Below are positions 1 through 17,835 of a DNA stretch of 32,000 nucleotides, piece after piece. A model generated the notes under the pieces. It saw nothing but the letters and a program-made list of their open reading frames with translations, ran no database searches and was not told the DNA's origin. The position numbers were made by a program, and so were the translations under genes. This DNA is from Acaryochloris marina S15 (GTDB lineage: Bacteria; Cyanobacteriota; Cyanobacteriia; Thermosynechococcales; Thermosynechococcaceae). Within the stretch, counting starts at the first letter, position 1, and each line of letters starts with the position of its first letter. The stretch covers positions 2,940,001 to 2,972,000 of the forward strand of contig NZ_CP064923.1 of assembly GCF_018336915.1 (NCBI RefSeq), written 5' to 3'.

Positions 1-1041
1 GTGGTGGATTCGGGTCTAGTAATATAGCGCTGTAGTCCTTTTTGCTTGAGATTTTGCCCTTGCAGTGCCGCACTGGTATAGGCAATGGCAATCACAATAA
101 CGATAGCCACCAACCGTTCTTGCATGGCTTGAGAGCCTTCGAGACAATAGCCTCCTTTCTTGAAGTCCCGAAACATTTCTTCGATAGAGAAGCGTTTTTG
201 GTAGCTGACGATAGCACTATTGAGGTCACAGAAGTTGGTGAGAATAAACCATGCTTCATCAGGTGCAAACCCCTGATACCGTCGTTTCCACTTGGCTGCC
301 ACATTGAAAGTTCCAAAGCCTTTAGCCTGAGTGACGCGCACATCATTGAGAAATAGCTTTTGACCTGGGACAAGGCCAAACTGTTGGAGTTGTTGAGTAA
401 ACTGCTGAGCCAGAGCCACTTCGGTATTGCGCTTGAGTCGCAGACAAAAGTAGACCTCTTGTTGGCCTAACCACTGCCCCAGCTTGACGGAACAAAACTC
501 TCGGTCACCGAGGATGACCAGACGATAGGCTGATAAATGGCTGATAACTTTGCTTAAAACAGCGGTTTGCTCGTCATAGTTGCTGCTGCCCTTTTTGCAG
601 AGGGCTTCACACCATACGGGAATAGCGCGATGTTGCCAGACCACGCTGACCACCAATAGATTAATCACTCCCCAACTCGTACGGTCGATGACGACATAAA
701 GCTGGGAGCCTTGAGGATACTGCTGGCTCAGCCACAGCTTAACCAGCGGTAGCCCCAAAGCGTTTCAAGCTCAAGGGTCGGTAAGGATAAGAACCGTTGG
801 ATTTTTTTCGGCGACTGTCAAAAAGAATCGGCAGTGGCAGCCCTTCTGCTAGCGTCTCGATTTTGACGCAGCGAAGTGTTTGTAATAGATGAACGAGGAT
901 CTCTAGGAGAAGATACTGGGCAGGAGACAGTTGACGGCGTAAATGGGGTTGGTATAGTGGCAATATCATTGTCAATAAGGTGAGCTGGAGATACATCATT
1001 TGCAGCCCATCTTTTTTCTTATCTATCGGGTTATTGCACAA
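1..1041 (-). pseudogene. IS4-family DDE transposase (element A), frameshifted; C-terminus lies outside the window
   Basis: ORF 739-1041 is identical to 14954-15256. The remainder mirrors 15237-16172, which carries the IS4 Y(2)R(3)E(6)K signature (YQKRFSIEEMFRDFK). Confidence 0.75.
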
Positions 1042-1090
1042 ATAGCAAGGGGTTTACGACGCATGTCGCCCCTTCAGGACAAACACAGAC
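1..1090 (-). mobile_element. IS4-family element A, left-arm copy (partial; continues past window start)
   Basis: Mirror of 14905-16203. Inner terminal repeat catgtcgccccttcag lies at about 1062-1077, the reverse complement of 14918-14933. Confidence 0.7.
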
Positions 1091-1312
1091 CCTTCGTCCT
1101 CGTTTACCAGTGGTCAAAAAAGGGAAATCAAAAATACCTGCGAGTCCAATTGCTGCGTAGTTTGTAGCAACAGACGAAAATCTATCAATTTACTCACTCG
1201 CTAATATCGGGTGAGTAAATTGAGATGTCCAAAATGCTGTTGCAATTCATAGGCAAAAAATTAGATCTGAATCCATACATATCACGAAAGGAATATCGTG
1301 AGCTCATCGGGT

Positions 1313-2176
1313 CTATTCATCCATCTGTCCTTCCTTTTTTTCATTCCTTTTCTCCTTTTGTGTTTTGGGCTTAGATGTAGCGGTTGTTTCACTCGTTGTT
1401 TTATCCTCATCTGAACGGTCATTACTGATGTCCCCTTCTGGCTTCAGGGTCAGTTTACTGGTCAATTTCCTCATGGATTCTCCTCGAAGCGGGACCTTCA
1501 TCGCATCATGAATAATCCGGTCAAGAATGGCATCAGCCAGGGTGGGATCTTGAATTTGTGAGTGCCATTGTTCGAGGGGCATTTGCGTGGCAAATAAACA
1601 GGAAGCTTTACGGAAACGCTCATCTAAGATATCGAGTATTTCTCTAGCCTCAAAGACAGACAGTGGATCTCTAAGCCATTCATCGAGCACGAGTAGATCG
1701 TAAGCCGCTAATTGTTTTCGGAGTTTGGGATAAGACCCATCTCCTTTGGCTAACTTCAACTCCAGAACCAGATCAGCGGTTTTGATATAGCGCACGCTAT
1801 GGCCTTGTTTGCACAAATGATGGGCCAGTACAGCTGACAAGAAAGACTTTCCCACGCCCGTGGGACCAAGCAAAATCAATGACAGATTTTCTTGGAGCCA
1901 ATGGCCTTGAGCAAATTCGAGAAACTGGATCTTTTTGAGCCCTCTGGGCACATCAAAATCCACTGCATCAAGGGTGGCGTGCACCGGCAGTCGAGCTTGC
2001 CGGAGTCGGCGCTGCATCCGTTGGTTTTGTCGTCGGATGTATTCACGCTCTACCATCAAAGCGAGTCGTTCATCGAACGATAGATCATGATAGGTGGGCA
2101 AGGCCTGCTGTTCTCGCCAAGCCTCCAAGAGTTCCGTAAGCTTCATGTGTTGCAGCTGGTCAATCATTGCTTGCAT
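1313..2176 (-). CDS. istB: IS21-family helper ATPase IstB
   Basis: 287 aa; Walker A LLGPTGVGKSF, Walker B LLVLDEW; immediately downstream of the istA fragment, as in IS21 elements. Confidence 0.9.
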   Translation of the reverse strand: MQAMIDQLQHMKLTELLEAWREQQALPTYHDLSFDERLALMVEREYIRRQNQRMQRRLRQARLPVHATLDAVDFDVPRGLKKIQFLEFAQGHWLQENLSLILLGPTGVGKSFLSAVLAHHLCKQGHSVRYIKTADLVLELKLAKGDGSYPKLRKQLAAYDLLVLDEWLRDPLSVFEAREILDILDERFRKASCLFATQMPLEQWHSQIQDPTLADAILDRIIHDAMKVPLRGESMRKLTSKLTLKPEGDISNDRSDEDKTTSETTATSKPKTQKEKRNEKKEGQMDE

Positions 2177-2188
2177 CGTTGTCTCCCC

Positions 2189-2898
2189 CTAAGTTGCTTG
2201 ATAGTATTTGGACCCACGGACATTGGCATGGTGAAGAAGCACCACCTTATGCTCCTCATCCGGTAAGGGGTCAGATTCCAGTTTGTGTTGGAGCATGGAC
2301 TTGAGATAGCGTTGACCCACCATCCCCATGGCATTCGCTCGCTTACAGGCCGCCTCCAATCGCTGAGCACCATGGGTTGTTCTTAGATGTTGCACCCCTT
2401 TCAAAGCACGAAACGCCTGTTCATCATGGGCTTTCTTCTCAAAGATATCTATCACTTGCTGCTTTGTCGCCGGTCCAACATTCTGGGCCCAAGCCAGGAA
2501 GGTCTCTCTCGATTGGGTTTTGTAAGCCAAATGCGCTGGTGGCATATGCCCCTCTTCAGTGGAATGCTGAAACGGCAAGCTAGAACGTTCATGTATCGCA
2601 ATGCGCTGATGGTCATGGAAAATCTGCACCAAAGATTCCGTAATCTTGACGGATACTGATTTCCCCACATATTCATAAGGGACACTGTAATAGTGGCGGT
2701 TCACCTCAATGTGATAATCAAAACTCACTTTTGCGTTCTTAAATTCTCCAAACTCAAACACTTGACTGGGCAAGGGCCTGAGTTCTGGTTGGTCCACTTG
2801 CTCAAATAATTCTCGACGCGAGAGACCATAGGATTTCATGGTCCGATGATTGAGTTTCTCCAGCCCCACTGCGATAGCCTCATTGAGGTGTTTGAAAC
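2189..2898 (-). pseudogene. istA: IS21-family transposase IstA, C-terminal fragment
   Basis: Translation ...KHLNEAIAVGLEKLNHRTMKSYGLSRRELFEQVDQPELRPLP...YYSVPYEYVGKSVSV... is typical of the IstA C-terminal region. It is severed from the rest by element B at 2899. Confidence 0.85.
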
Positions 2899-2931
2899 CT
2901 GACTGCCTGACAGATCTTTGCCTTCCCCTGC

Positions 2932-3882
2932 TCATAAAGCCTTGCACTGTAAAGAGCGGATGTGAGAGAACCAGATTTTGTTGTAGTATTTCTTTTGAGC
3001 TTTTTTAGACGCAAAACACGGTTGTGGATCATGGCAGAGCAAGGGGACTGGCATCAACAACTCCCGTCCTTTATGGACTACCCCCTTGAGCCACCGTAAT
3101 CCAATTTTGAGATAACTAATGCCTCGCCGCCAATGTGGATCAACCTGTTGGCGCAGCCCTTTAATGTGAACAGCCATTCCTTGAGTCGTGCTGAATAGCA
3201 GTGCCACAGCAGCAACCAGATAAAGCCTCTCTAATGCATCAGCACAGCGAATTTTCGACTCTTCTAGCTCAAACACTCCAGACTTACTATCGAGAAATAA
3301 TTCTTCGACCCGAAACCTCAAAGCGTATTGCCACAAGGTCTGTAGCGTGGGTGATTCATCTGTAATCACCGCCCATGGTTCTTTCACTCCTCGGATATTA
3401 GCCAACACCAGATTGCACCGATAGATGCCATCTTCCCAAAGACCGACATTGCGGTAGAGGAGGGCTTCGCCTTTGGATGGCCACAATTGTCGGACTTCTC
3501 TTGGACATTGACGTGGACCATGGAGAAGGACATCACAAGGGACACGCAGACAGTAATGCCAATGGCTCTGTTGTAACCAGCTCATCAGTTGATGGTTCGC
3601 AAACCCACGATCTGCTAACACCATGACATCTGGATGCTGCCGCAATAACCAACGGGCCTGGCGCAATAGCGGTTGATATTCCTCAAAAGCGACAGCTGCA
3701 CTCTTGTGCTCTAATACTTTCCACAACAACGGTACTGCTCTGCCACAGCAGACGACGGATAGATGAATCATGCAATATTCATTCCATAACACCGTTGTAT
3801 CCATTGCCAGGTATAGACGATGAGATTGCCAGTTCTTAAGGGCTAGCAGGACTAGAGGTACATATAGCTTGTTAATAAGCAC
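2932..3882 (-). pseudogene. IS4-family transposase of element B, C-terminal catalytic part
   Basis: 316 aa with LAMDTT, VLADRGF and the YREK signature YALRFRVEELFLDSK. The N-terminal part is displaced to 6108-6338. Confidence 0.85.
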
Positions 3883-4883
3883 TTAGCTAAAATTAATTAC
3901 ATAATCATCGCCATAGGTTTTCAAAACTCTTTCCACATATTCGACCAAAGATGACCACCCCCAGTAGGCACTCATTTCAATCCACTGATATTTCATGAAT
4001 TGCCACAGACGCTCAATCAAATTTAGATGGGGAGAATAGCTTGGTAACTCAAACAAGGTAATTCCCCGTTCGGCCCACTCTGCCTTCATCTCATAGATTG
4101 CTTGGCTCGTATGGATAGGGGCTTGATCCATCACAATGACGGTGGGCAACTCCACGTCAGTAAAGAAGGTATCAATGCAATGACTGACAACCTCACTGGT
4201 GATGGTCTGTTCTGATGTATAAGCATGTAGCCCTTGTCGTCGACTCAAAAACCCCAGAACATTCAAGCGTTTACTTGAACGAGTCGGTATTTCCAGATAA
4301 GTCCCTATGGGTTGCCATCCGTAGGGAATACAGGGGACTAACGAAAAACCACTCTCATCCATAAAGAATAGGTGGATGTCTCCCTTCTCTTCTTGTTTCT
4401 TGAGATGTTCTAACTGCTGTTTTTTTCGAGGTAGTCGGCATATAAAGGCTGGCCTGATGTCCCTTGGCGAAAGCGATGCCAGCTCATATCCATCTGCTTC
4501 AAGACGCGTTTAACGGTGGCCTTTGACACGCGCACTGACCACTGCTGTTCAATCTGAGCTAGCACCCGATTGAGTTGGATGGGAGATGCCTGAGTCCACT
4601 CATAAATCTGCTGTTGTTGGTCGGGATTAAACATCGGTTTTCGACCTCGACCTGGGCGATTATAGAGTCCTGCAAAACCACGGTTATTCCAAGCCTTAAG
4701 CCAGTTGTACACGGTTTTAGGACTCACACTAAAAAGGGAGGCTAAGGTGTAGGGACTCACACCCTGGGCAGACAAAATGAGGCAATGGGCGCGTTGTCTG
4801 ACCTGATGATGGCGACTACAGCGATAAATCCGATGCAATAAGCGTAAGCTTTCGGTGGAGATAGGACGGACAATTGACATCAA
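3883..4883 (-). CDS. IS630-family transposase in two frames (HTH part 4410-4883, DDE part 3883-4362), joined at an A7 run
   Basis: N-terminal HTH region (VSPKTVYNWLKAWNNRGFAGL). C-terminal FFMDESGF...VMDQAPIHTS...LPSYSPHLNLIERLW is the IS630 DDE core. The downstream frame reads KKQQLEHLKKQEEKGDIHLFFMDESGF upstream of the listed ATG. Confidence 0.85.
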
Positions 4884-4934
4884 ATCAATGGATGTAAAAA
4901 AGAGGACTCAGGTAGTTTACAACCTGGAAATTCT

Positions 4935-6075
4935 CTCAGTACAGGACAAAAACTTGAAAGCGTAGACAAAGATAGGGTTCCATGGAGATAACTACCCCTC
5001 ACAATGAAACCCTATGAATCAGGTTACTCTTCTTCGTCAAACCTTGCAGCCCCACTTGCGATGGCATGGTGCTCGATTGAGCTTTGTCGCCTTATTTTTG
5101 ATAGCTCTGTTTCGGGTAAAGACCGTCAACCTTTCAGAATTGGCGACAGGATTTAGAGGTAAAGCGACTCAAGACGCTCACTACAAACGCTTACAACGAT
5201 TCTTCCGTAATTTTGAGCTAGATTACTACGACTTTGCCCATACCGTCGTGTCCTTGATGGATATCCCTGAACCTTGGGTCCTTAGTATTGACCGCACCCA
5301 ATGGCAATTTGGTTCAGTCGTGTTCAATATCCTGACACTAGGAATTGTTCATGAGGGTGTAGCTTTTCCAGTGCTGTGGTGGATGCTAGATAAGAAGGGA
5401 AACTCTAATACTCAAGAACGCATAGAGCTCCTGGATGAATGGCAACAGTTGTTTCCCCAGCGACAGGTCCAGTGCTTGACGGCAGACCGAGAGTTTATGG
5501 GAGAACAGTGGTTTGAATATCTGCTCAAGCAAACTCGCATGCCTTTCCGAATTCGCATTCGTGAAAGTGACAAACTCTCCAAGGGGCGAACAGGTCTCAA
5601 AGGTAAGGTTGTTTTTGCCCATTTGAAACCCAACCAGACTCAGGTACTCAAGAATCGTCGATGCTTATGGGGCCATTGGGTTTATGTTGCTGCACTCAAG
5701 CTTGAGGATGGGAAGCTACTAATTGTTGCGACGGCTCATGCACCTAAAACTGCGATCTCTGATTATGCACATCGGTGGGGGATTGAAACCCTCTTTGGCA
5801 TTTTCAAAACCCGTGGATTTTGTCTCGAATCTACCCATCTACAAGATGTAGAGCGGCTCAGTAAGTTATTCGCATTACTGACTTTGGCTCTGTGCTGGGC
5901 CTTTCGCACTGGACAATGGTTGCATCAACTCAAGCCTCTTAAGCTCAAGAAACATGGCAGGAGAACCAAAAGCATCTTTCGTTATGGCTTTGAGCATCTA
6001 CGAGGCATTGTTCTCAATCTCGACCAGAGGGCAGATGAGTTCCGGGAGGTGTTACCGTTTTTGTCCTGTACTTAG
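4935..6075 (+). mobile_element. IS4-family element C (left-arm copy), 1141 bp, apparently intact
   Basis: 19-bp terminal inverted repeats ctcagtacaggacaaaaac (4935-4953) and gtttttgtcctgtacttag (6057-6075), 1 mismatch. 9-bp target duplication ggaaattct at 4926-4934 and 6076-6084. Confidence 0.9.
5014..6075 (+). CDS. IS4-family DDE transposase of element C (intact, 353 aa)
   Basis: Full-length ORF with SIDRTQW, LTADREF and the YREK signature YAHRWGIETLFGIFK. The stop codon is the last 3 nt of the element. Confidence 0.9.
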   Translation: MNQVTLLRQTLQPHLRWHGARLSFVALFLIALFRVKTVNLSELATGFRGKATQDAHYKRLQRFFRNFELDYYDFAHTVVSLMDIPEPWVLSIDRTQWQFGSVVFNILTLGIVHEGVAFPVLWWMLDKKGNSNTQERIELLDEWQQLFPQRQVQCLTADREFMGEQWFEYLLKQTRMPFRIRIRESDKLSKGRTGLKGKVVFAHLKPNQTQVLKNRRCLWGHWVYVAALKLEDGKLLIVATAHAPKTAISDYAHRWGIETLFGIFKTRGFCLESTHLQDVERLSKLFALLTLALCWAFRTGQWLHQLKPLKLKKHGRRTKSIFRYGFEHLRGIVLNLDQRADEFREVLPFLSCT

Positions 6076-6107
6076 GGAAATTCTATGTAATTAATTTTGT
6101 CCATCTG

Positions 6108-6338
6108 CTTATCAATGCGTTGATTGGCTATAAATCGTTGCCACCGACGCTCGACACTTTGGGCTTTTCTGGCTCGGCAGGGAACATAGGATTCCCAGGC
6201 AGATAAGCTTAAGCGTTCACTACAGATTAAGGCGCTTACCATCCAGCCCAGAGCAATGAGATGGCGCAAATCTCGATAATGGCTGTGTTGACGTAAAAAG
6301 GAAAACAGTTGACGATAAATTTGGGTGGGGCCTGACAT
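6108..6338 (-). pseudogene. IS4-family transposase of element B, N-terminal fragment
   Basis: MSGPTQIYRQLFSFLRQHSHYRDLRHLIALGWMV...RRWQRFIANQRID is a typical IS4 N-terminus. It is cut by the IS630 insertion; the ORF tail 6072-6107 is read-through into IS630/IS4-C sequence. Confidence 0.75.
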
Positions 6339-6444
6339 TTGAATAACGCTGATTTGTGATTAAATCTAGCCTCACATGTCTCTCCACTCTTTTCTCATAA
6401 ACTATGTAAATAAAGGCTTTGACCTACTTCTGTCAGGCAATCAG

Positions 6445-7308
6445 GTTTGAAACTGGTAAAGGTCTGATCTCGTAATGGAGCGAGAATATGACGTTCCACT
6501 TGCTGCACCGCATTCTCCACTTTGGGTTTATCCCGAGGGCATTTAGGACGAGCAGGCAGAATAATCACGTTGTAGTGTTCGGCAAAGTCTTGATAGCTCT
6601 GATTGATACCGGGCTCATAACGACACGGATCTGTGACCCCTGACTTGAGGTTGTCAGGGACGAACGCGACCGGCACTCCACCAAAGAAGGCCAAGGTCCG
6701 TTGATGAGATCCGAGCCAGTTCTTGATGGTTTGGCTTTTGGTCGCCTCTGCATAGGTGTAGTTACTCGCTCCACAGCAGGCGACAAACACTTGGGCTTGA
6801 GTGACCTCACCGGTTTTGGGATGGACCACCGGCACCGTCATACCGCAGTAGTCTACAAAGATTTTTCCGCTCCCTTGTGGGTCTGGCGCATAGACAGCGA
6901 ATGCTGTTTTTTCCACTTACGGTATCGACGGCAAAAGCCACTATAGCTACAGTTCCAGTCTCCTCTCTCTTTACCTTCCATCCACAAAAGACACAAGGTG
7001 ACCCCTTTGCGTTGCATCTCTCGATGCACATACTCGAAGTCAATCCCAGGCTTCTTACGGGAAGACTGACGCTGACCTTTCCCCAGCAGATGCTGGACAT
7101 CACTATCACTCAATCGGCTTAACTGGTCATAACTGAGGGATTGACCCTGGGCACGATGCAGATAGTCTCGAACAGTGGAACGGGAGATTAGACAGCTACG
7201 GGCGATCTCAGATTTATTGTGACCGAGTTTATGTAAACGGATAATTTCGCGGAATTTACTCATGGACAGGGTTGCTCCTTGACGTTTATAGACCATTGCT
7301 GTCTCCAT
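6445..7308 (-). pseudogene. IS21-family transposase IstA, N-terminal HTH plus DDE part, frameshifted at an A5 run
   Basis: ORF 6853-7308 (MSKFREIIRLHKLGHNKSEIARSCLISRSTVRDYL, HTH) and ORF 6395-6916 (IFVDYCGMTVPVV...VPDNLKSGV) are contiguous IstA sequence in two frames. The shift is at ggaaaaatc; one extra A would restore ...GAEKIFVDYCG... Confidence 0.85.
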
Positions 7309-7460
7309 TCCTCTGGCTAATGCACAGAAGTTTAGAGGTTGGCCTGGTCTGGTTAGGGGAATGACCTGTCGAAATGATGGTTAGGGGGTGGCGAAGTTTA
7401 TTGCCATTTGACCGGCGAGGTTGCCCTCCAAAGGGGTGGCGAAGTTTGTGAGAATATGCA

Positions 7461-7659
7461 GACTTTTTGTCCGCTTCCCAAAGCCATCGCCTGAGGGTGG
7501 TTTACTACTGTTACGACTATCCTTGTCAAGACGTTCTTCTAGTCGCTCTATCCGCTCGATAAGACGGGTGACTAGTTCAACAACCGCATCCTCACCTTGA
7601 TGGTAGATTGCTCGAATATCAGATTCACTAATTTTCTGATCAGAGACTTTCTTGTTCAA
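7461..7659 (-). pseudogene. IS66-family transposase, N-terminal fragment only
   Basis: Coiled N-terminus ...LIERIERLEERLDKDSRNSSKPPSGDGFGKRTKSL matches the conserved IS66 TnpC N-terminal region (leucine zipper followed by NSSxPPSxD). Similarity stops abruptly after KSL, where the IS21-like sequence begins. Confidence 0.7.
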
Positions 7660-7910
7660 CGGAAGATCATGGATTGACTGCTGTTGTGCTTAAAACATAG
7701 CGCCAGAGAGAGTTATAACTTCATTCTCAACACAATGATTTAAGCCTGGGCAGTAACAAGTTATTTATAGAAAGAGTTTTAGGTGGCATGCTCTATAAGT
7801 ATTTATTTGGTCTTATTGACATACAAATATGCATAGAGAGTTTAGAAAGATTGTTTTTAGATGCTATTTCCTATAGTAAAGAGCACATTCTCTGCGATAA
7901 ATCTAACTTT

Positions 7911-7979
7911 AGGTGCAATAAATAGGTGCAATAAATAGGTGCAATAAATAGGTGCAATAAATAGGTGCAATAAATAGGT
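7911..7979 (+). repeat. Tandem repeat, 13-bp unit aggtgcaataaat x 5.3
   Basis: Read directly: five perfect head-to-tail copies at 7911-7975, plus a partial copy aggt. Confidence 0.95.
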
Positions 7980-7980
7980 A

Positions 7981-8014
7981 TGGTAATTAATAGTATTAAT
8001 ACTATTAATTACCA
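7981..8014. other. Axis of the palindrome: 34-bp AT-rich perfect palindrome core with no loop
   Basis: tggtaattaatagtatt|aatactattaattacca; the two halves are exact reverse complements. Confidence 0.95.
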
Positions 8015-8015
8015 T

Positions 8016-8084
8016 ACCTATTTATTGCACCTATTTATTGCACCTATTTATTGCACCTATTTATTGCACCTATTTATTGCACCT
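8016..8084 (-). repeat. Mirror copy of the 13-bp x 5.3 tandem repeat
   Basis: atttattgcacct units read directly; reverse complement of 7911-7979. Confidence 0.95.
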
Positions 8085-8335
8085 AAAGTTAGATTTATCG
8101 CAGAGAATGTGCTCTTTACTATAGGAAATAGCATCTAAAAACAATCTTTCTAAACTCTCTATGCATATTTGTATGTCAATAAGACCAAATAAATACTTAT
8201 AGAGCATGCCACCTAAAACTCTTTCTATAAATAACTTGTTACTGCCCAGGCTTAAATCATTGTGTTGAGAATGAAGTTATAACTCTCTCTGGCGCTATGT
8301 TTTAAGCACAACAGCAGTCAATCCATGATCTTCCG

Positions 8336-8534
8336 TTGAACAAGAAAGTCTCTGATCAGAAAATTAGTGAATCTGATATTCGAGCAATCTACCATCAAGG
8401 TGAGGATGCGGTTGTTGAACTAGTCACCCGTCTTATCGAGCGGATAGAGCGACTAGAAGAACGTCTTGACAAGGATAGTCGTAACAGTAGTAAACCACCC
8501 TCAGGCGATGGCTTTGGGAAGCGGACAAAAAGTC
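8336..8534 (+). pseudogene. IS66-family transposase N-terminal fragment (right-arm copy)
   Basis: Protein identical to 7381-7659(-). IS66-like similarity ends after ...GKRTKSL. Confidence 0.7.
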
Positions 8535-8687
8535 TGCATATTCTCACAAACTTCGCCACCCCTTTGGAGGGCAACCTCGCCGGTCAAATGGCAATAAACT
8601 TCGCCACCCCCTAACCATCATTTCGACAGGTCATTCCCCCTAACCAGACCAGGCCAACCTCTAAACTTCTGTGCATTAGCCAGAGGA

Positions 8688-9551
8688 ATGGAGACAGCAA
8701 TGGTCTATAAACGTCAAGGAGCAACCCTGTCCATGAGTAAATTCCGCGAAATTATCCGTTTACATAAACTCGGTCACAATAAATCTGAGATCGCCCGTAG
8801 CTGTCTAATCTCCCGTTCCACTGTTCGAGACTATCTGCATCGTGCCCAGGGTCAATCCCTCAGTTATGACCAGTTAAGCCGATTGAGTGATAGTGATGTC
8901 CAGCATCTGCTGGGGAAAGGTCAGCGTCAGTCTTCCCGTAAGAAGCCTGGGATTGACTTCGAGTATGTGCATCGAGAGATGCAACGCAAAGGGGTCACCT
9001 TGTGTCTTTTGTGGATGGAAGGTAAAGAGAGAGGAGACTGGAACTGTAGCTATAGTGGCTTTTGCCGTCGATACCGTAAGTGGAAAAAACAGCATTCGCT
9101 GTCTATGCGCCAGACCCACAAGGGAGCGGAAAAATCTTTGTAGACTACTGCGGTATGACGGTGCCGGTGGTCCATCCCAAAACCGGTGAGGTCACTCAAG
9201 CCCAAGTGTTTGTCGCCTGCTGTGGAGCGAGTAACTACACCTATGCAGAGGCGACCAAAAGCCAAACCATCAAGAACTGGCTCGGATCTCATCAACGGAC
9301 CTTGGCCTTCTTTGGTGGAGTGCCGGTCGCGTTCGTCCCTGACAACCTCAAGTCAGGGGTCACAGATCCGTGTCGTTATGAGCCCGGTATCAATCAGAGC
9401 TATCAAGACTTTGCCGAACACTACAACGTGATTATTCTGCCTGCTCGTCCTAAATGCCCTCGGGATAAACCCAAAGTGGAGAATGCGGTGCAGCAAGTGG
9501 AACGTCATATTCTCGCTCCATTACGAGATCAGACCTTTACCAGTTTCAAAC
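8688..9551 (+). pseudogene. istA: IstA N-terminal HTH plus DDE part, frameshifted at A5 run 9130-9134, truncated by IS4-B at 9552
   Basis: ORFs 8688-9143 and 9080-9601 are identical to the left-arm ORFs. Real IstA sequence ends at ...RDQTFTSFK. Confidence 0.85.
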
Positions 9552-9657
9552 CTGATTGCCTGACAGAAGTAGGTCAAAGCCTTTATTTACATAGTTTATG
9601 AGAAAAGAGTGGAGAGACATGTGAGGCTAGATTTAATCACAAATCAGCGTTATTCAA

Positions 9658-9888
9658 ATGTCAGGCCCCACCCAAATTTATCGTCAACTGTTTTCCTTTT
9701 TACGTCAACACAGCCATTATCGAGATTTGCGCCATCTCATTGCTCTGGGCTGGATGGTAAGCGCCTTAATCTGTAGTGAACGCTTAAGCTTATCTGCCTG
9801 GGAATCCTATGTTCCCTGCCGAGCCAGAAAAGCCCAAAGTGTCGAGCGTCGGTGGCAACGATTTATAGCCAATCAACGCATTGATAAG
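9658..9888 (+). pseudogene. IS4-B transposase N-terminal fragment
   Basis: Identical to the left-arm fragment; truncated by IS630. Confidence 0.75.
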
Positions 9889-9920
9889 CAGATGGACAAA
9901 ATTAATTACATAGAATTTCC

Positions 9921-10981
9921 CTAAGTACAGGACAAAAACGGTAACACCTCCCGGAACTCATCTGCCCTCTGGTCGAGATTGAGAACAATGCCTCGTAGAT
10001 GCTCAAAGCCATAACGAAAGATGCTTTTGGTTCTCCTGCCATGTTTCTTGAGCTTAAGAGGCTTGAGTTGATGCAACCATTGTCCAGTGCGAAAGGCCCA
10101 GCACAGAGCCAAAGTCAGTAATGCGAATAACTTACTGAGCCGCTCTACATCTTGTAGATGGGTAGATTCGAGACAAAATCCACGGGTTTTGAAAATGCCA
10201 AAGAGGGTTTCAATCCCCCACCGATGTGCATAATCAGAGATCGCAGTTTTAGGTGCATGAGCCGTCGCAACAATTAGTAGCTTCCCATCCTCAAGCTTGA
10301 GTGCAGCAACATAAACCCAATGGCCCATAAGCATCGACGATTCTTGAGTACCTGAGTCTGGTTGGGTTTCAAATGGGCAAAAACAACCTTACCTTTGAGA
10401 CCTGTTCGCCCCTTGGAGAGTTTGTCACTTTCACGAATGCGAATTCGGAAAGGCATGCGAGTTTGCTTGAGCAGATATTCAAACCACTGTTCTCCCATAA
10501 ACTCTCGGTCTGCCGTCAAGCACTGGACCTGTCGCTGGGGAAACAACTGTTGCCATTCATCCAGGAGCTCTATGCGTTCTTGAGTATTAGAGTTTCCCTT
10601 CTTATCTAGCATCCACCACAGCACTGGAAAAGCTACACCCTCATGAACAATTCCTAGTGTCAGGATATTGAACACGACTGAACCAAATTGCCATTGGGTG
10701 CGGTCAATACTAAGGACCCAAGGTTCAGGGATATCCATCAAGGACACGACGGTATGGGCAAAGTCGTAGTAATCTAGCTCAAAATTACGGAAGAATCGTT
10801 GTAAGCGTTTGTAGTGAGCGTCTTGAGTCGCTTTACCTCTAAATCCTGTCGCCAATTCTGAAAGGTTGACGGTCTTTACCCGAAACAGAGCTATCAAAAA
10901 TAAGGCGACAAAGCTCAATCGAGCACCATGCCATCGCAAGTGGGGCTGCAAGGTTTGACGAAGAAGAGTAACCTGATTCAT
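9921..10981 (-). pseudogene. IS4-C transposase, split into 235-aa and 137-aa ORFs by a 1-nt deletion relative to the left-arm copy
   Basis: The right copy has CCC at 10324-10326 where the left copy has GGGG at 5669-5672. Otherwise the two ORFs (10274-10981, 9921-10334) match the 353-aa protein. Confidence 0.85.
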
Positions 10982-11060
10982 AGGGTTTCATTGTGAGGGG
11001 TAGTTATCTCCATGGAACCCTATCTTTGTCTACGCTTTCAAGTTTTTGTCCTGTACTGAG
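9921..11060 (-). mobile_element. IS4-family element C (right-arm copy), 1140 bp
   Basis: Terminal inverted repeats ctaagtacaggacaaaaac (9921-9939) and gtttttgtcctgtactgag (11042-11060). 9-bp target duplication agaatttcc at 9912-9920 and 11061-11069, immediately inside the IS630 terminal repeat. Confidence 0.9.
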
Positions 11061-11111
11061 AGAATTTCCAGGTTGTAAACTACCTGAGTCCTCTTTTTTA
11101 CATCCATTGAT

Positions 11112-12112
11112 TTGATGTCAATTGTCCGTCCTATCTCCACCGAAAGCTTACGCTTATTGCATCGGATTTATCGCTGTAGTCGCCATCATCAGGTCAGACA
11201 ACGCGCCCATTGCCTCATTTTGTCTGCCCAGGGTGTGAGTCCCTACACCTTAGCCTCCCTTTTTAGTGTGAGTCCTAAAACCGTGTACAACTGGCTTAAG
11301 GCTTGGAATAACCGTGGTTTTGCAGGACTCTATAATCGCCCAGGTCGAGGTCGAAAACCGATGTTTAATCCCGACCAACAACAGCAGATTTATGAGTGGA
11401 CTCAGGCATCTCCCATCCAACTCAATCGGGTGCTAGCTCAGATTGAACAGCAGTGGTCAGTGCGCGTGTCAAAGGCCACCGTTAAACGCGTCTTGAAGCA
11501 GATGGATATGAGCTGGCATCGCTTTCGCCAAGGGACATCAGGCCAGCCTTTATATGCCGACTACCTCGAAAAAAACAGCAGTTAGAACATCTCAAGAAAC
11601 AAGAAGAGAAGGGAGACATCCACCTATTCTTTATGGATGAGAGTGGTTTTTCGTTAGTCCCCTGTATTCCCTACGGATGGCAACCCATAGGGACTTATCT
11701 GGAAATACCGACTCGTTCAAGTAAACGCTTGAATGTTCTGGGGTTTTTGAGTCGACGACAAGGGCTACATGCTTATACATCAGAACAGACCATCACCAGT
11801 GAGGTTGTCAGTCATTGCATTGATACCTTCTTTACTGACGTGGAGTTGCCCACCGTCATTGTGATGGATCAAGCCCCTATCCATACGAGCCAAGCAATCT
11901 ATGAGATGAAGGCAGAGTGGGCCGAACGGGGAATTACCTTGTTTGAGTTACCAAGCTATTCTCCCCATCTAAATTTGATTGAGCGTCTGTGGCAATTCAT
12001 GAAATATCAGTGGATTGAAATGAGTGCCTACTGGGGGTGGTCATCTTTGGTCGAATATGTGGAAAGAGTTTTGAAAACCTATGGCGATGATTATGTAATT
12101 AATTTTAGCTAA
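11112..12112 (+). CDS. IS630-family transposase in two frames (11112-11585 and 11633-12112), joined at A7 run 11569-11575
   Basis: Same proteins as 3883-4883(-). Frame 0 to frame -1 transition at gaa aaa aac. Confidence 0.85.
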
Positions 12113-13063
12113 GTGCTTATTAACAAGCTATATGTACCTCTAGTCCTGCTAGCCCTTAAGAACTGGCAATCTCATCGTCTATACCTGGCAATGGATACAA
12201 CGGTGTTATGGAATGAATATTGCATGATTCATCTATCCGTCGTCTGCTGTGGCAGAGCAGTACCGTTGTTGTGGAAAGTATTAGAGCACAAGAGTGCAGC
12301 TGTCGCTTTTGAGGAATATCAACCGCTATTGCGCCAGGCCCGTTGGTTATTGCGGCAGCATCCAGATGTCATGGTGTTAGCAGATCGTGGGTTTGCGAAC
12401 CATCAACTGATGAGCTGGTTACAACAGAGCCATTGGCATTACTGTCTGCGTGTCCCTTGTGATGTCCTTCTCCATGGTCCACGTCAATGTCCAAGAGAAG
12501 TCCGACAATTGTGGCCATCCAAAGGCGAAGCCCTCCTCTACCGCAATGTCGGTCTTTGGGAAGATGGCATCTATCGGTGCAATCTGGTGTTGGCTAATAT
12601 CCGAGGAGTGAAAGAACCATGGGCGGTGATTACAGATGAATCACCCACGCTACAGACCTTGTGGCAATACGCTTTGAGGTTTCGGGTCGAAGAATTATTT
12701 CTCGATAGTAAGTCTGGAGTGTTTGAGCTAGAAGAGTCGAAAATTCGCTGTGCTGATGCATTAGAGAGGCTTTATCTGGTTGCTGCTGTGGCACTGCTAT
12801 TCAGCACGACTCAAGGAATGGCTGTTCACATTAAAGGGCTGCGCCAACAGGTTGATCCACATTGGCGGCGAGGCATTAGTTATCTCAAAATTGGATTACG
12901 GTGGCTCAAGGGGGTAGTCCATAAAGGACGGGAGTTGTTGATGCCAGTCCCCTTGCTCTGCCATGATCCACAACCGTGTTTTGCGTCTAAAAAAGCTCAA
13001 AAGAAATACTACAACAAAATCTGGTTCTCTCACATCCGCTCTTTACAGTGCAAGGCTTTATGA
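12113..13063 (+). pseudogene. IS4-B transposase C-terminal catalytic part
   Basis: Identical to 2932-3882(-); YREK signature present. Confidence 0.85.
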
Positions 13064-13096
13064 GCAGGGGAAGGCAAAGATCTGTCAGGCAGTCAG

Positions 13097-13806
13097 GTTT
13101 CAAACACCTCAATGAGGCTATCGCAGTGGGGCTGGAGAAACTCAATCATCGGACCATGAAATCCTATGGTCTCTCGCGTCGAGAATTATTTGAGCAAGTG
13201 GACCAACCAGAACTCAGGCCCTTGCCCAGTCAAGTGTTTGAGTTTGGAGAATTTAAGAACGCAAAAGTGAGTTTTGATTATCACATTGAGGTGAACCGCC
13301 ACTATTACAGTGTCCCTTATGAATATGTGGGGAAATCAGTATCCGTCAAGATTACGGAATCTTTGGTGCAGATTTTCCATGACCATCAGCGCATTGCGAT
13401 ACATGAACGTTCTAGCTTGCCGTTTCAGCATTCCACTGAAGAGGGGCATATGCCACCAGCGCATTTGGCTTACAAAACCCAATCGAGAGAGACCTTCCTG
13501 GCTTGGGCCCAGAATGTTGGACCGGCGACAAAGCAGCAAGTGATAGATATCTTTGAGAAGAAAGCCCATGATGAACAGGCGTTTCGTGCTTTGAAAGGGG
13601 TGCAACATCTAAGAACAACCCATGGTGCTCAGCGATTGGAGGCGGCCTGTAAGCGAGCGAATGCCATGGGGATGGTGGGTCAACGCTATCTCAAGTCCAT
13701 GCTCCAACACAAACTGGAATCTGACCCCTTACCGGATGAGGAGCATAAGGTGGTGCTTCTTCACCATGCCAATGTCCGTGGGTCCAAATACTATCAAGCA
13801 ACTTAG
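13097..13806 (+). pseudogene. istA: IstA C-terminal fragment
   Basis: Identical to 2189-2898(-). The first 16 residues of ORF 13048-13806 derive from the IS4-B end. Confidence 0.85.
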
Positions 13807-13818
13807 GGGGAGACAACG

Positions 13819-14682
13819 ATGCAAGCAATGATTGACCAGCTGCAACACATGAAGCTTACGGAACTCTTGGAGGCTTGGCGAGAACAGCAGGCCTTGCCCA
13901 CCTATCATGATCTATCGTTCGATGAACGACTCGCTTTGATGGTAGAGCGTGAATACATCCGACGACAAAACCAACGGATGCAGCGCCGACTCCGGCAAGC
14001 TCGACTGCCGGTGCACGCCACCCTTGATGCAGTGGATTTTGATGTGCCCAGAGGGCTCAAAAAGATCCAGTTTCTCGAATTTGCTCAAGGCCATTGGCTC
14101 CAAGAAAATCTGTCATTGATTTTGCTTGGTCCCACGGGCGTGGGAAAGTCTTTCTTGTCAGCTGTACTGGCCCATCATTTGTGCAAACAAGGCCATAGCG
14201 TGCGCTATATCAAAACCGCTGATCTGGTTCTGGAGTTGAAGTTAGCCAAAGGAGATGGGTCTTATCCCAAACTCCGAAAACAATTAGCGGCTTACGATCT
14301 ACTCGTGCTCGATGAATGGCTTAGAGATCCACTGTCTGTCTTTGAGGCTAGAGAAATACTCGATATCTTAGATGAGCGTTTCCGTAAAGCTTCCTGTTTA
14401 TTTGCCACGCAAATGCCCCTCGAACAATGGCACTCACAAATTCAAGATCCCACCCTGGCTGATGCCATTCTTGACCGGATTATTCATGATGCGATGAAGG
14501 TCCCGCTTCGAGGAGAATCCATGAGGAAATTGACCAGTAAACTGACCCTGAAGCCAGAAGGGGACATCAGTAATGACCGTTCAGATGAGGATAAAACAAC
14601 GAGTGAAACAACCGCTACATCTAAGCCCAAAACACAAAAGGAGAAAAGGAATGAAAAAAAGGAAGGACAGATGGATGAATAG
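13819..14682 (+). CDS. istB: IS21-family helper ATPase IstB
   Basis: Identical to 1313-2176(-); Walker A/B motifs. Confidence 0.9.
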   Translation: MQAMIDQLQHMKLTELLEAWREQQALPTYHDLSFDERLALMVEREYIRRQNQRMQRRLRQARLPVHATLDAVDFDVPRGLKKIQFLEFAQGHWLQENLSLILLGPTGVGKSFLSAVLAHHLCKQGHSVRYIKTADLVLELKLAKGDGSYPKLRKQLAAYDLLVLDEWLRDPLSVFEAREILDILDERFRKASCLFATQMPLEQWHSQIQDPTLADAILDRIIHDAMKVPLRGESMRKLTSKLTLKPEGDISNDRSDEDKTTSETTATSKPKTQKEKRNEKKEGQMDE

Positions 14683-14904
14683 ACCCGATGAGCTCACGAT
14701 ATTCCTTTCGTGATATGTATGGATTCAGATCTAATTTTTTGCCTATGAATTGCAACAGCATTTTGGACATCTCAATTTACTCACCCGATATTAGCGAGTG
14801 AGTAAATTGATAGATTTTCGTCTGTTGCTACAAACTACGCAGCAATTGGACTCGCAGGTATTTTTGATTTCCCTTTTTTGACCACTGGTAAACGAGGACG
14901 AAGG

Positions 14905-16203
14905 GTCTGTGTTTGTCCTGAAGGGGCGACATGCGTCGTAAACCCCTTGCTATTTGTGCAATAACCCGATAGATAAGAAAAAAGATGGGCTGCAAATGAT
15001 GTATCTCCAGCTCACCTTATTGACAATGATATTGCCACTATACCAACCCCATTTACGCCGTCAACTGTCTCCTGCCCAGTATCTTCTCCTAGAGATCCTC
15101 GTTCATCTATTACAAACACTTCGCTGCGTCAAAATCGAGACGCTAGCAGAAGGGCTGCCACTGCCGATTCTTTTTGACAGTCGCCGAAAAAAATCCAACG
15201 GTTCTTATCCTTACCGACCCTTGAGCTTGAAACGCTTTGGGGCTACCGCTGGTTAAGCTGTGGCTGAGCCAGCAGTATCCTCAAGGCTCCCAGCTTTATG
15301 TCGTCATCGACCGTACGAGTTGGGGAGTGATTAATCTATTGGTGGTCAGCGTGGTCTGGCAACATCGCGCTATTCCCGTATGGTGTGAAGCCCTCTGCAA
15401 AAAGGGCAGCAGCAACTATGACGAGCAAACCGCTGTTTTAAGCAAAGTTATCAGCCATTTATCAGCCTATCGTCTGGTCATCCTCGGTGACCGAGAGTTT
15501 TGTTCCGTCAAGCTGGGGCAGTGGTTAGGCCAACAAGAGGTCTACTTTTGTCTGCGACTCAAGCGCAATACCGAAGTGGCTCTGGCTCAGCAGTTTACTC
15601 AACAACTCCAACAGTTTGGCCTTGTCCCAGGTCAAAAGCTATTTCTCAATGATGTGCGCGTCACTCAGGCTAAAGGCTTTGGAACTTTCAATGTGGCAGC
15701 CAAGTGGAAACGACGGTATCAGGGGTTTGCACCTGATGAAGCATGGTTTATTCTCACCAACTTCTGTGACCTCAATAGTGCTATCGTCAGCTACCAAAAA
15801 CGCTTCTCTATCGAAGAAATGTTTCGGGACTTCAAGAAAGGAGGCTATTGTCTCGAAGGCTCTCAAGCCATGCAAGAACGGTTGGTGGCTATCGTTATTG
15901 TGATTGCCATTGCCTATACCAGTGCGGCACTGCAAGGGCAAAATCTCAAGCAAAAAGGACTACAGCGCTATATTACTAGACCCGAATCCACCACTTCACT
16001 GAACAAGCGGCATAGTGCATTCCGAGTTGGACTATCTGCGTATATGTGGGCCATAACGGGGGATGGAGTTCTGGCTCGATTGGTGGATGAGCTAATGAAA
16101 CTCTCTCCCAATAAGCTACCTGAGTATCAACGGGGGATGAGAGCGATGGAGCTTGTCTGTGCTGGGTTGTAGCCTTCATGTCGCCCCCTCAGCTGAAACA
16201 GAC
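14905..16203 (+). mobile_element. IS4-family element A (complete copy; the palindrome passes through it)
   Basis: Core terminal inverted repeat ctgaaggggcgacatg (14918-14933) vs catgtcgccccctcag (16177-16192), 1 mismatch. There is weaker extension outward to gtctg (14905) and cagac (16203). No target duplication found. Confidence 0.65.
14954..16172 (+). pseudogene. IS4-family transposase of element A, in three frames (two 1-nt frameshifts)
   Basis: Frame change at A7 run 15187-15193: an extra A gives ...DSRRKKIQRFLSLPTLSLETLW. Second change at GGGG 15239-15242: an extra G gives ...LWGLPLVKLWLSQQY. The downstream part has VVIDRTSW, ILGDREF and YQKRFSIEEMFRDFK. Confidence 0.8.
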
Positions 16204-16942
16204 AATCCTTATTGTCAGCCCCATCCCGCAATCATGATGGTCACAGGCTATGTGGTAGAGAGAGGTTTAATCTTGCCCCCTTATGAAGTTGACCAGAAGA
16301 CCAATGAAATCAAGGCCTTGCCTGAAATGATTGAGCAGCTTGCTCTCAAAGGAGTGGTCTTTGCCTTTGATGCCATCAACACCCAAAAAAACAGCACAGC
16401 TCATTGTTGACAGTGGCAATGAGTATCTCGGGGCGCTCAAAGGCAACCAGAAAGGATTACTGACTGATGTGAAAGCACATTTTAAGCCAGAATCAACGGT
16501 TGAAACCCTGGGAAAAGGGCATGGTCGCATTGAAAAGCGAACCGTTAGTATCTGCCGTGACCTGAGTAATATTCGACAATGGCCAGGTCTCAAAACACTC
16601 ATTCGGGTTGAATCACAACGCTCTGAAATCTATAACGACATGATTGTCGATACCCAAGAGACTCGCTATTACATCACGTCACTCCTGGAGGAGGTAGAAC
16701 CTTTGGCACAAAGAATTCGGGGGTATTGGGGAGTAGAAAACAAGGTCCATTATGTTCGCGATGTCACCCAAGGTGAAGATGCTTCAAGGATTCGGACCAC
16801 ACCCCTTATTGGCCTGTTCGTACAAGCGCGTAATCTATCACTCAATCTTTATCGAGAATATGGATTCACCAATATGGCTCAGGCAAAGCGACGATGTGAA
16901 CAATCACTAGACATACTGATGGATGTTTTTAGAATGAAATAG
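16204..16942 (+). pseudogene. ISAs1-family transposase, N-terminally truncated and frameshifted at A7 run 16385-16391
   Basis: ...AIMMVTGYVVERGLILPPYEVDQKTNEIKALPEMIEQLALKGVVFAFDAINTQK / KTAQLIVDSGNEYLGALKGNQ...YWGVENKVHYVRDVTQGEDASRIRT matches the conserved ISAs1 (H-repeat) core. The ORFs 16153-16410 and 16331-16942 are consecutive parts in different frames. Confidence 0.8.
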
Positions 16943-17142
16943 CCCTGGTGGGAAGGGAGTATTCATGCAACAATACCCAATCGACAATGAATTCATTCAA
17001 CCATTGAATGTCTTGCTCCTGTCCACTTTTTCGAGTAAAGGTCACTGTCTACTTTTTCGAGACAAGATCATTTCAAAAATGGGCGAACCGTGAGTACAAG
17101 ATATATCGACTACTACACAGCTTTTTTTCAAAGGCTTTAATC

Positions 17143-17835
17143 TCAAACTTCAAAGTTAAATCCTTGTTGCTTCAATAGCTCATATTTGCTTTGGTCGAAC
17201 TGATAGAGCCTAGCAGCACGATGGGCAACTCCAATTTGTCGCTCATCCAGAGAGATTAAGAGATCCATTTTTAGCAATTTCTTACGGAAGTTACGTTTAT
17301 CTAAAGGATGACCCAAAACCGTTTCATAGAGATGCTGGATTTGGGTGAGCGTAAATTTTTGCGGCAGTAATTCAAAACCAATCGGTTCATAACGAACTTT
17401 GCTCTGCAAGCGGTGGATAGCCTGTTTCAAGATTTGAGCATGATCGAAGGCTAGGGATGGTAAATTTCCAAGGGAATACCAAGCTGCATCTTCAGCATCA
17501 GTAGCGGCCTGTAAGGGATATTCAATTAGGTTGATTAAAGCGTAGTAGGCAACGGAGATGATGCGATCGCGCGGATCTCGACCCAAATCACCAAAGGTAT
17601 AGAGCTGCTCTAGAAAGATACCTTGAACACCCGTTTCTTCCTGTAGTTCCCGGCGAGCCGCTTCTTCTAAAGATTCATCCATCTGCACAAAGCCGCCAGG
17701 CAGTGCCCACTGATGCTGGAAGGGAGGAATCTGGCGCTGAATTAGTAGGATTTTGAGATCAATCTGTTCGTCTAAGCCAAACACCACACAGTCAACGGTA
17801 AGACCAGGGCGCGGATAGTCATAGGTATAGGGCAT
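17143..17835 (-). CDS. nrtR: NrtR-family regulator: Nudix hydrolase domain fused to a C-terminal winged-helix DNA-binding domain
   Basis: Intact Nudix box [24 protein letters not shown] (GX5EX7REUXEEXGU). The C-terminal [33 protein letters not shown] is the hallmark NrtR wHTH segment. Size is 230 aa. Confidence 0.85.

Follow-up and report, generated by a model that had tools for sequence, protein, structure and literature searches.

Does the chromosome of Acaryochloris marina S15 really carry a palindrome of at least 16 kb without any spacer between its arms, or is one of the arms a by-product of sequencing and assembly? The question is raised by a stretch of 32,000 nucleotides (hereafter the window), the first half of which had been described in an initial annotation as a near-perfect inverted repeat without a loop, centred between 7997 and 7998, made entirely of nested insertion sequences (IS) and possibly extending beyond the window edge.

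The inverted repeat and its axis

Ungapped comparison of the window with its reverse complement gave a sharp minimum only at the axis 7997|7998, and self-BLAST returned one minus-strand match, 1-15994 against 15994-1, with 99.975% identity and no mismatches. In the arm-to-arm alignment, the inverted repeat had a loop or spacer of 0 nt and no substitution in 7,997 bp, and no central deletion or asymmetry was seen at the axis; self-BLAST revealed no repeat common to both sides besides the arms themselves. The sequence at the axis is ...TTAATAGTATT|AATACTATTAA..., and a 200-nt piece spanning it folded into a hairpin along its whole length (-108.7 kcal/mol, z = -30.6 versus shuffles). Taken together, the alignment and the folding compared with shuffles rule out a chance origin of the symmetry, and the geometry given in the initial annotation was borne out by all three sequence comparisons. 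The suspicion that the repeat may be longer was also justified: the left arm stops at position 1 and is joined to no other sequence inside the window, and the arm length of 7,997 bp is a lower bound. Since the outer limit of mirroring falls within an IS4-family element, it is set by the window edge and not by a sequence feature. The coordinates of all features are collected in Table 1.

Table 1. Features of the palindrome and of the adjoining chromosomal DNA (window coordinates)
Feature	Position	Strand	Remarks
Left arm	1..7997	-	reverse complement of 7998-15994; cut by window edge
Right arm	7998..15994	+	runs on into unique chromosomal DNA; collinear with A. marina MBIC11017
ATTAAT, 6-bp natural palindrome enclosing the axis 7997|7998	7995..8000	.	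also in related genomes
Non-IS core, 2 x 240 bp AT-rich intergenic DNA	7758..8237 (480 bp)	.	homologous to intergenic DNA at MBIC11017 record start and in Logan contig L089
Tandem array, 5.4 copies of 13-mer CTATTTATTGCAC	8016..8085	+	mirror copy 7910-7979
IS66-family 5' fragment	8238..8535	+	begins at left end GTTACTGCCCAGGC...; mirror 7460-7757
IS21-family element, inserted into IS66 fragment	8536..14756	+	matches at 90%; domains HTH + rve, Mu-transpos_C_2, IstB_IS21
IS4-like element, inserted in istA	9551..13098 (parts 9551-9886, 12118-13098)	+	DDE_Tnp_1
Second IS4-family element, interrupting the IS4-like one	~9887-11060	transposase -	DDE_Tnp_1/DDE_3 domain search
IS630-family element, interrupting the same IS4-like one	~11061-12117		DDE_Tnp_1/DDE_3 domain search
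IS4-family element straddling the outer limit of mirroring, 15994	14917..16192	+	98.2% match and domain search
ISAs1-family fragment, last mobile DNA before unique chromosome	16196..17097	+	98.1% match
NrtR-type NUDIX regulator, first conserved chromosomal gene, synteny anchor	17143..17835	-	
G/C-run discordance 1	right 10327 GGG (3) vs left 5669 GGGG (4)	.	arm alignment
G/C-run discordance 2	right 8640 GGGGG (5) vs left 7355 GGGG (4)	.	non-coding, IS21 left-end region

Composition of the arms

About 97% of each arm is IS-derived, so that the description of the repeat as nested IS elements holds except for the innermost 240 bp per arm; for the first 240 bp, no IS or plasmid match was found. 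The IS66 fragment shares 99% identity with the Moss Beach plasmid pMB01 and contains DUF6444, the N-terminal region of IS66. In the IS21-family element, istA is split (8688-9601 and 13048-13806) and istB lies at 13819-14682, while a search for a right terminal repeat found none. The IS4-like element is 99% identical to Moss Beach pMB05 and has terminal inverted repeats at 9543-9567 and 13081-13105.

The core shares 86% identity with positions 1-49 of NC_009925.1 and 80% with positions 273-476 of L089. The 13-mer of its tandem array, present in just one or two copies in L089, contains the TAGGTG/CACCTA motif, which is enriched in the region in all three lineages. An exact 26-mer, used to trace the tandem 13-mer elsewhere, matched neither genome nor metagenome contigs, and the conserved flank block had no matches in metagenome contigs. 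No exact-protein record was found for the ORFs of 45, 52 and 92 aa near the axis, and a homologue search with the six reading frames of the 240-bp core concatenated into a pseudo-protein was empty. The sole match of the 52-aa axis-spanning ORF in the representative library was P0123 on contig L096; this contig was discarded as a relative, being an unrelated sequence of 39% GC with a similar 13-mer array and homology nowhere else. A replication origin in the AT-rich core was rejected since no DnaA-box cluster was found, and so was a structured RNA or tRNA attachment site, in view of no Rfam matches and no tRNA.

Chromosomal context of the right arm

Homology to relatives begins at about 17097, where the ISAs1 fragment ends. 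In the comparison with MBIC11017, positions 1-10741 of locus L009 correspond to window positions 27769-17097, and its positions 12271-12319 to 8237-8188, in the same order and orientation. Judged by sequence comparison, the window is Acaryochloris chromosomal DNA, and from the right arm outward into unique sequence it is collinear with the beginning of the MBIC11017 chromosome, position 1 of whose record is only about 190 bp from the equivalent of the axis. We regard the right arm as the authentic copy, since it passes directly into unique chromosomal sequence and shares this collinearity with MBIC11017. The earlier suggestion that one arm alone could be real stands, the real one being that from 7998 onward. 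An exact-protein look-up of the NrtR regulator retrieved only short Logan contigs of strains about 98.5% identical. Two loci from Acaryochloris metagenome-assembled genomes (L010 and L052) were rejected as the ancestral left flank: the NrtR side is common to them, and the downstream DNA matches neither each other nor the core.

The axis site in related genomes

In L089, an independent short-read contig, the intergenic DNA runs past the axis-equivalent into non-mirrored DNA, where a Tn7-like transposon begins with its left end; the contig has 1.8 kb of different sequence beyond the axis-equivalent, and the equivalent of MBIC11017 position 1 is internal as well. L089, L091 and L092 all read ...AATAGTATTAAT followed by GTC..., with ATTAAT at the homologous position, and neither L089 nor L091 has an inverted repeat longer than ATTAAT centred at the axis-equivalent. 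In four contigs (L089, L090, L091 and L092), the junction between the flank and a tnsB-tniB-tniQ left end lies 2 bp from the axis, and in L097 the same short flank motif adjoins the axis-equivalent. Thus, the axis position, on which the three options of the initial annotation were silent, is non-arbitrary, lying both in ATTAAT and next to the transposon end of relatives. At this junction, the element of the relatives carries genes for a TnsB/Mu-type DDE transposase, TniB and TniQ. Transposases of this type nick 3' ends exactly at the transposon/flank junction and are not known to form hairpins on the flank. A flank hairpin of transposase origin, as in hAT/RAG-type excision, was accordingly dismissed on the type of the element found in the relatives.

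The same contigs bear on another reading, in which the palindrome arose by reading through the covalently closed hairpin telomere that ends a linear replicon, with the tip at 7997|7998 and only one real arm. Its signature would be identical to the terminal inverse duplications of 5-18 kb found in ONT assemblies of Borrelia (10.1101/2025.07.18.665644). A sceptic could add that the MBIC11017 record begins so close to the axis-equivalent because that assembly stopped near a physical end. We nevertheless hold this reading to be barely plausible. The site is internal in L089, and the self-complementarity conserved in L089 and L091 amounts to 6 bp, while a resolution-type inverted repeat would span tens of base pairs. 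Moreover, the DNA is chromosomal and syntenic with the MBIC11017 chromosome, which was published as circular, and the chromosome of a related strain, obtained from ONT data, is a circle of 7.25 Mb. A Pfam scan of 20 window ORFs, all lying before 23.5 kb of the window in a genome of several Mb, gave no telomere-resolvase-like match, and a literature search for hairpin telomeres in Acaryochloris found none. The telomere option of the initial annotation is therefore disfavoured.

Differences between the arms

The arms differ solely at two sites, each a one-base change in the length of a G run (Table 1). At the first of them, the IS4 transposase is frameshifted in the right arm (9921-10334 + 10274-10981), whereas the left arm has an uninterrupted copy of 353 aa (5014-6075). 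Since only G-run lengths are affected and one of the changes disrupts a transposase reading frame in the arm whose genomic status is certain, we interpret the differences as noise and not as divergence. By their form, they are of the sequencing-error type, typical of the residual error of a nanopore-type consensus in repeat-rich DNA. The Moss Beach IS copies compared for the correct run length included no homologous copy of site 1, and for site 2 the Moss Beach homologue was too diverged to decide. At site 1, the reading frame, and nothing else, argues for the left-arm length.

Origin of the palindrome

We estimate at roughly 0.6 the probability that the palindrome derives from a fold-back molecule which was read by a long-read sequencer and used by the assembler to extend a contig, in which case only the right arm would be real. 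The left arm (1-7997) is thus probably a non-genomic fold-back copy. We lean toward this explanation because of the zero spacer, the error-type differences between the arms and the literature on fold-back reads. Among ONT genomic-DNA reads, about 0.55-0.6% are of this kind; less than half of these carry any sequence between their halves, and they appear to originate in library preparation and can tangle assembly graphs (Heinz, Meyerson and Li 2026, PMC12870357). The circular genome of the related Acaryochloris strain was assembled with Flye from ONT reads with only 7x Illumina polishing, which provides an example of this type of assembly within the genus.

Under the fold-back explanation, the real chromosome would have the order NrtR gene cluster, nested IS pile of about 9 kb and AT-rich intergenic stretch of 240 bp. 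A DNA end at or next to ATTAAT would have turned back onto the complementary strand by snap-back, template switch or head-to-head joining, either in library preparation or in a rare broken copy of the chromosome, and the sequencer would have read the resulting molecule, with which the assembler then extended a contig that had stopped here. Since the progenitor offers only the 6 bp of self-complementarity in ATTAAT, the site matches a microhomology-type fold-back junction. This scheme would entail long-read data with homopolymer errors, a contig end in or near the left arm, and a fold-back missing from most chromosome copies.

Some observations speak against an artefact. A random fragment end is unexpected within 2 bp of a transposon-end junction and so close to the equivalent of MBIC11017 position 1; this non-random position of the axis hints at a site-specific DNA end and is also compatible with a real event in vivo. 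Furthermore, should the window sit mid-way in a long finished contig, it would be less easy to account for an artefact exceeding 16 kb inside it.

A pure assembler or graph error without any fold-back molecule seems very improbable to us; in this case, a contig stopping at the edge of a repeat or mobile element would have been fused with its own reverse strand. The axis does coincide with a mobile-element boundary of relatives, and the region is of the most IS-dense kind, in which graphs break; in related strains, every short-read contig is interrupted at the IS boundary near 17100. However, an overlap mis-join is not expected to produce a base-perfect junction in a 6-bp palindrome with no bases lost or added, and, apart from the arms themselves, it finds no shared repeat across the axis on which to act.

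The remaining alternatives invoke real DNA. A recent genuine inverted duplication, carried by the chromosome or by a substantial share of its many copies, is in our opinion unlikely. In bacteria, long perfect palindromes are expected to be lost through SbcCD cleavage or replication slippage, or soon made asymmetric. A loop-less perfect palindrome of at least 16 kb would be expected to be extremely unstable, yet its center is intact and symmetric, and the outer junction that a real duplication requires is absent from the window. In the proposed route, a 3' end or nascent strand would switch strand at ATTAAT and copy back at least 8 kb, in the manner of snap-back tandem inversion duplications (TID) or U-turns, and nicking or breakage where the Tn7-like transposon seated here in relatives ends might have been the trigger. 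In favor of such an event, the junction falls in a short natural palindrome, as in the microhomology-mediated U-turn inversions of plastid DNA (PMC4417113), and a transposase nick at the nearby left-end junction would yield a site-specific DNA end; the transposon, however, is known from contigs of relatives alone and not from the strain of the window. A more specific version appears quite improbable: TnsB-type nicking at the Tn7-like (CAST-like) left end would repeatedly yield an end ...AGTATTAA|TGT..., which turns back on ATTAAT and gives a hairpin-capped or head-to-head duplicated arm, abundant enough for assembly in a polyploid cyanobacterium. The initial annotation had placed an artefact first; this ranking was reasonable and has not been overturned, although an artefact and a real inverted duplication are inseparable from sequence alone.

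Implications

Annotations in 1-7997 probably represent a phantom second copy of 7998-15994 and should be excluded from counts of genes, IS elements and repeats. The two arms can, however, be used for mutual correction of homopolymers, as in the case of the IS4 transposase, and the locus flags an assembly that needs a read-level check. If recurrent fold-back at the transposon end were true, it would offer a direct view of chromosome breakage by a Tn7-like/CRISPR-associated-type transposon in its native host and show how polyploid cyanobacteria tolerate broken chromosome copies.

Comparison with known systems

With the hairpin-telomere systems of Borrelia (ResT), phage N15 (TelN) and Agrobacterium (TelA), the palindrome shares kilobases of spacer-less inverted duplication in a long-read assembly. 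Unlike in these systems, the site is internal in relatives, a conserved telomere-type inverted repeat is missing, and the genus assembles as circular replicons. Inverted duplications primed by short palindromes or microhomology (Salmonella snap-back TID, U-turn-like inversions in the DNA of plastids and mitochondria (PMC4417113), and palindromic amplification starting at short inverted repeats) resemble it in having a very short inverted repeat, already present in the progenitor, at the centre of the junction and a large perfect palindrome as product. Evidence for such events comes from reads or genetics, and they are usually rare or soon remodelled, whereas the palindrome described here is known from assembled sequence. 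[quoted passage not shown]

The palindrome and its arms

Set against its reverse complement, the window (32,000 bp, GC content about 47%) showed a sharp drop in mismatches only with the axis placed between 7997 and 7998. Self-BLAST returned a single minus-strand alignment of 1-15994 with 15994-1 containing no mismatch, and direct alignment of the arms revealed two differences: GGGG at 5669 on the left against GGG at 10327 on the right, and GGGG at 7355 on the left against GGGGG at 8640 on the right. The loop-less inverted repeat described in the initial annotation was thereby borne out. There is no spacer at the axis, where TTAATAGTATT is followed directly by AATACTATTAA, and a 200-nt piece spanning it folds into one unbroken hairpin (-108.7 kcal/mol, z = -30.6). 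As also noted initially, the palindrome reaches the window edge: the left arm runs to window position 1 and the mirror point, 15994, lies within an IS4-family transposase gene, so the arm length is fixed by the edge of the window. The accompanying statement that it is made entirely of nested IS elements is correct for about 97% of each arm, but not for the central 480 bp (7758-8237), which are AT-rich intergenic DNA.

The right arm leads outward through a pile of IS elements to ordinary genes (see the table). Plasmid matches of the window (megablast) were confined to Acaryochloris and ran via IS21, IS4, ISAs1, and IS66 family elements. In window 14683-14916 the IS21-family element shows no right terminal repeat that could be recognised, and the rest of the IS66 element that it interrupts is missing, which indicates that the pile also underwent deletions. 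An IS4-family transposase is intact in the left arm (353 aa, 5014-6075) and frameshifted in the right arm (9921-10981) by a one-base difference in the length of a G run. This frameshift is probably a consensus error and implies that residual homopolymer errors are present in the assembly. Farther out, the ORF 19714-21591, whose conserved product lacks any Pfam match, contains a 21-bp tandem repeat (20056-20097) that encodes RRRVGDH twice. Related strains have the unit once, so the copy number is polymorphic in frame, and the protein measures 618 aa in those strains and 625 aa in the window.

Features of the right arm and the adjoining DNA, listed outward from the axis
Feature	Window position	Remark
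AT-rich DNA, 20 bp	7998-8017	
Tandem array of the 13-mer CTATTTATTGCAC, 5.4 copies	8016-8085	Mirror at 7910-7979
Further AT-rich DNA	up to 8237	No IS or plasmid match
IS66-family element, left end and first 298 bp	8238-8535	99% to Moss Beach pMB01
IS21-family element, interrupting the IS66 fragment	8536 to about 14756	Own istA split by IS4-like element
IS4-like element splitting istA	9551-9886 and 12118-13098	
IS4-family and IS630-family elements	about 9887-12117	Nested in the istA-splitting IS4-like element
IS4-family element	14917-16192	
ISAs1 fragment	16196 to about 17097	
NrtR-type NUDIX regulator, PP2C phosphatase, ADP-ribosylglycohydrolase, and other ordinary genes	from about 17100	

Synteny with the MBIC11017 chromosome

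A search with the NrtR protein led to the A. marina MBIC11017 chromosome (NC_009925.1), where the locus is found right at the beginning of the record. Record positions 1-12319, taken in reverse (L009), aligned with window 27769-17097 at 85-86% identity, and, beyond a 1.5-kb stretch absent from the window, L009 12271-12319 aligned with window 8237-8188. Together, these NrtR-side and core alignments indicate that the right arm is collinear with the related chromosome as far as the AT-rich core. The 1.5-kb stretch of MBIC11017, composed of a truncated reverse-transcriptase gene and AT-rich DNA, is replaced by the IS pile in the window. The MBIC11017 record has its first base within the intergenic AT-rich DNA of the core (NC_009925.1 positions 1-49 correspond to window 8188-8237), about 190 bp from the axis-equivalent. 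All seven Logan contigs, assembled from short reads of strains that share about 98.5% identity with the window, end just past NrtR, at an IS66 end. Immediately downstream of NrtR lies a hot spot of insertion in three occupancy states, namely an ISAs1 end in the window, an IS66 end in these seven strains, and the truncated reverse-transcriptase gene in MBIC11017, which share the join ...CGATATATC (window 17031-17110; 3' ends of L002-L008; L009 10690-10760).

The axis-equivalent site in relatives

A 45-aa ORF in the core (8070-8207, minus strand) has one homologue, P0001, on the 2,288-bp Logan contig L089. Positions 29-322 of this contig match the MBIC11017 start region, and positions 273-476 match window 7758-7963 (equivalent to 8237-8032) with 80% identity, the homology extending, by eye, to ...AATAGTATTAAT. 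Past this point the window folds back as AATACTATT..., whereas L089 goes on with TGTCGAGTGCCAAATTAAATGACC...GTGCCAAATTATTTGACC... and then a gene whose product has HTH, rve, and Mu-transpos_C domains. The closest relative of this gene, P0002 (84%), belongs to a context of tnsB (570 aa), tniB/tnsC (281 aa), and tniQ (174 aa) modules, with tnsA absent. The element is Tn7-like and resembles Tn5053 or type V-K CAST; cas12k was not seen on the element-bearing contigs, which are short.

The junction of L089, ...AATAGTATTAA/TGTC..., recurs in three further contigs (L090, L091, and L092), and that of L097 reads ...AAATAGTATCAG/TGTCGAGTGCC.... Since L095 has the same TGTC... terminus next to an unrelated flank, TGT is taken as the element terminus, and the shared junction places the axis (TATT/AATA) 2 bp from the boundary between flank and left end. 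The ATTAA of the flank and the first T of the element form the 6-bp palindrome ATTAAT, and no longer inverted repeat is centred at the axis-equivalent in L089 or L091. Across the cyanobacterial contigs carrying this Tn7-like family (L089 487-2288; L090, L091, L092, L095, and L097), the core comprises tnsB of about 570 aa, tniB/tnsC of about 275 aa, and tniQ of about 175 aa, again lacking tnsA, and the TGTC left end has repeated putative TnsB sites.

The hexamer TAGGTG/CACCTA is strongly enriched in the AT-rich region of three lineages, with 5-6 occurrences in each versus about 0.1-0.4 expected (window 7910-7979 and 8016-8085; L089 424-475; L009 11700-12319), and could be a protein-binding motif. 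The 13-mer array that bears it has 1-2 copies in L089 versus 5.4 in the window. Neither DnaA boxes nor an Rfam family nor a tRNA was found in the AT-rich region. Seven tandem copies of CTTATTTATTGCA, one base off the window's 13-mer, occur at 10100-10200 of an unrelated ENA metagenome contig (L096, 39% GC) with no other similarity to the window; this likeness is probably a coincidence.

Origin of the palindrome

Long perfect palindromes are unstable in bacteria. This instability, the zero spacer with no central remodelling, and the restriction of arm differences to the homopolymer-error type all speak for an artefact or for a molecule of rare occurrence. One such difference, that frameshifting the IS4 transposase intact in the other arm, lies in the arm that is necessarily genomic. 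Moreover, a survey of fold-back reads points the same way: their share among ONT genomic reads is about 0.55-0.6%, the two halves adjoin directly in more than half of them, and they are ascribed to library preparation and can upset assemblies (PMC12870357). Adapter sequence would be expected in the middle of a template/complement read that had escaped splitting, but the occurrence of such spacer-less reads takes away this objection to an artefact. The best explanation, to which we assign a probability of roughly 60%, is therefore a fold-back molecule or read that extended a contig, the right arm alone being genomic, and the initial ranking with an artefact first was kept. A genuine inverted duplication seems unlikely, though sequence alone cannot decide between it and an artefact, and a mis-join by the assembler is less probable still. 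The palindrome is useful as an assembly warning.

Read-through of a hairpin telomere would give the same assembly signature, as in ONT assemblies of Borrelia, where 5-18 kb terminal inverse duplications, likewise spacer-less, occur at hairpin telomeres (10.1101/2025.07.18.665644). Unlike a telomere, however, the axis-equivalent site is internal in L089; its flank is chromosomal DNA arranged in the same order as in MBIC11017, and ONT data of a related strain were assembled into a circular 7.25-Mb chromosome and circular plasmids. Furthermore, a conserved resolution-site-like inverted repeat is absent, no resolvase-like protein was among the 20 window ORFs scanned with Pfam (all upstream of 23.5 kb), and no literature link between Acaryochloris and hairpin telomeres was found. 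We thus consider a telomere highly improbable.

A fold-back of purely random origin is argued against by the position of the axis, 2 bp from the mobile-element terminus of relatives and about 190 bp from where the MBIC11017 record starts. By our estimate, a random fragment end would produce either coincidence with a probability of only about 1e-4 to 1e-3, which makes a site-specific DNA end at the axis plausible. If the element known from relatives is also present in the window's strain, a candidate for such an end would be a nick introduced at its 3' end by a transposase of the TnsB type and then turned into a break. An end of this origin would fit the folding back of a recurrent end at the library stage as well as an in-vivo snap-back or U-turn event like those known from plastid DNA (PMC4417113).
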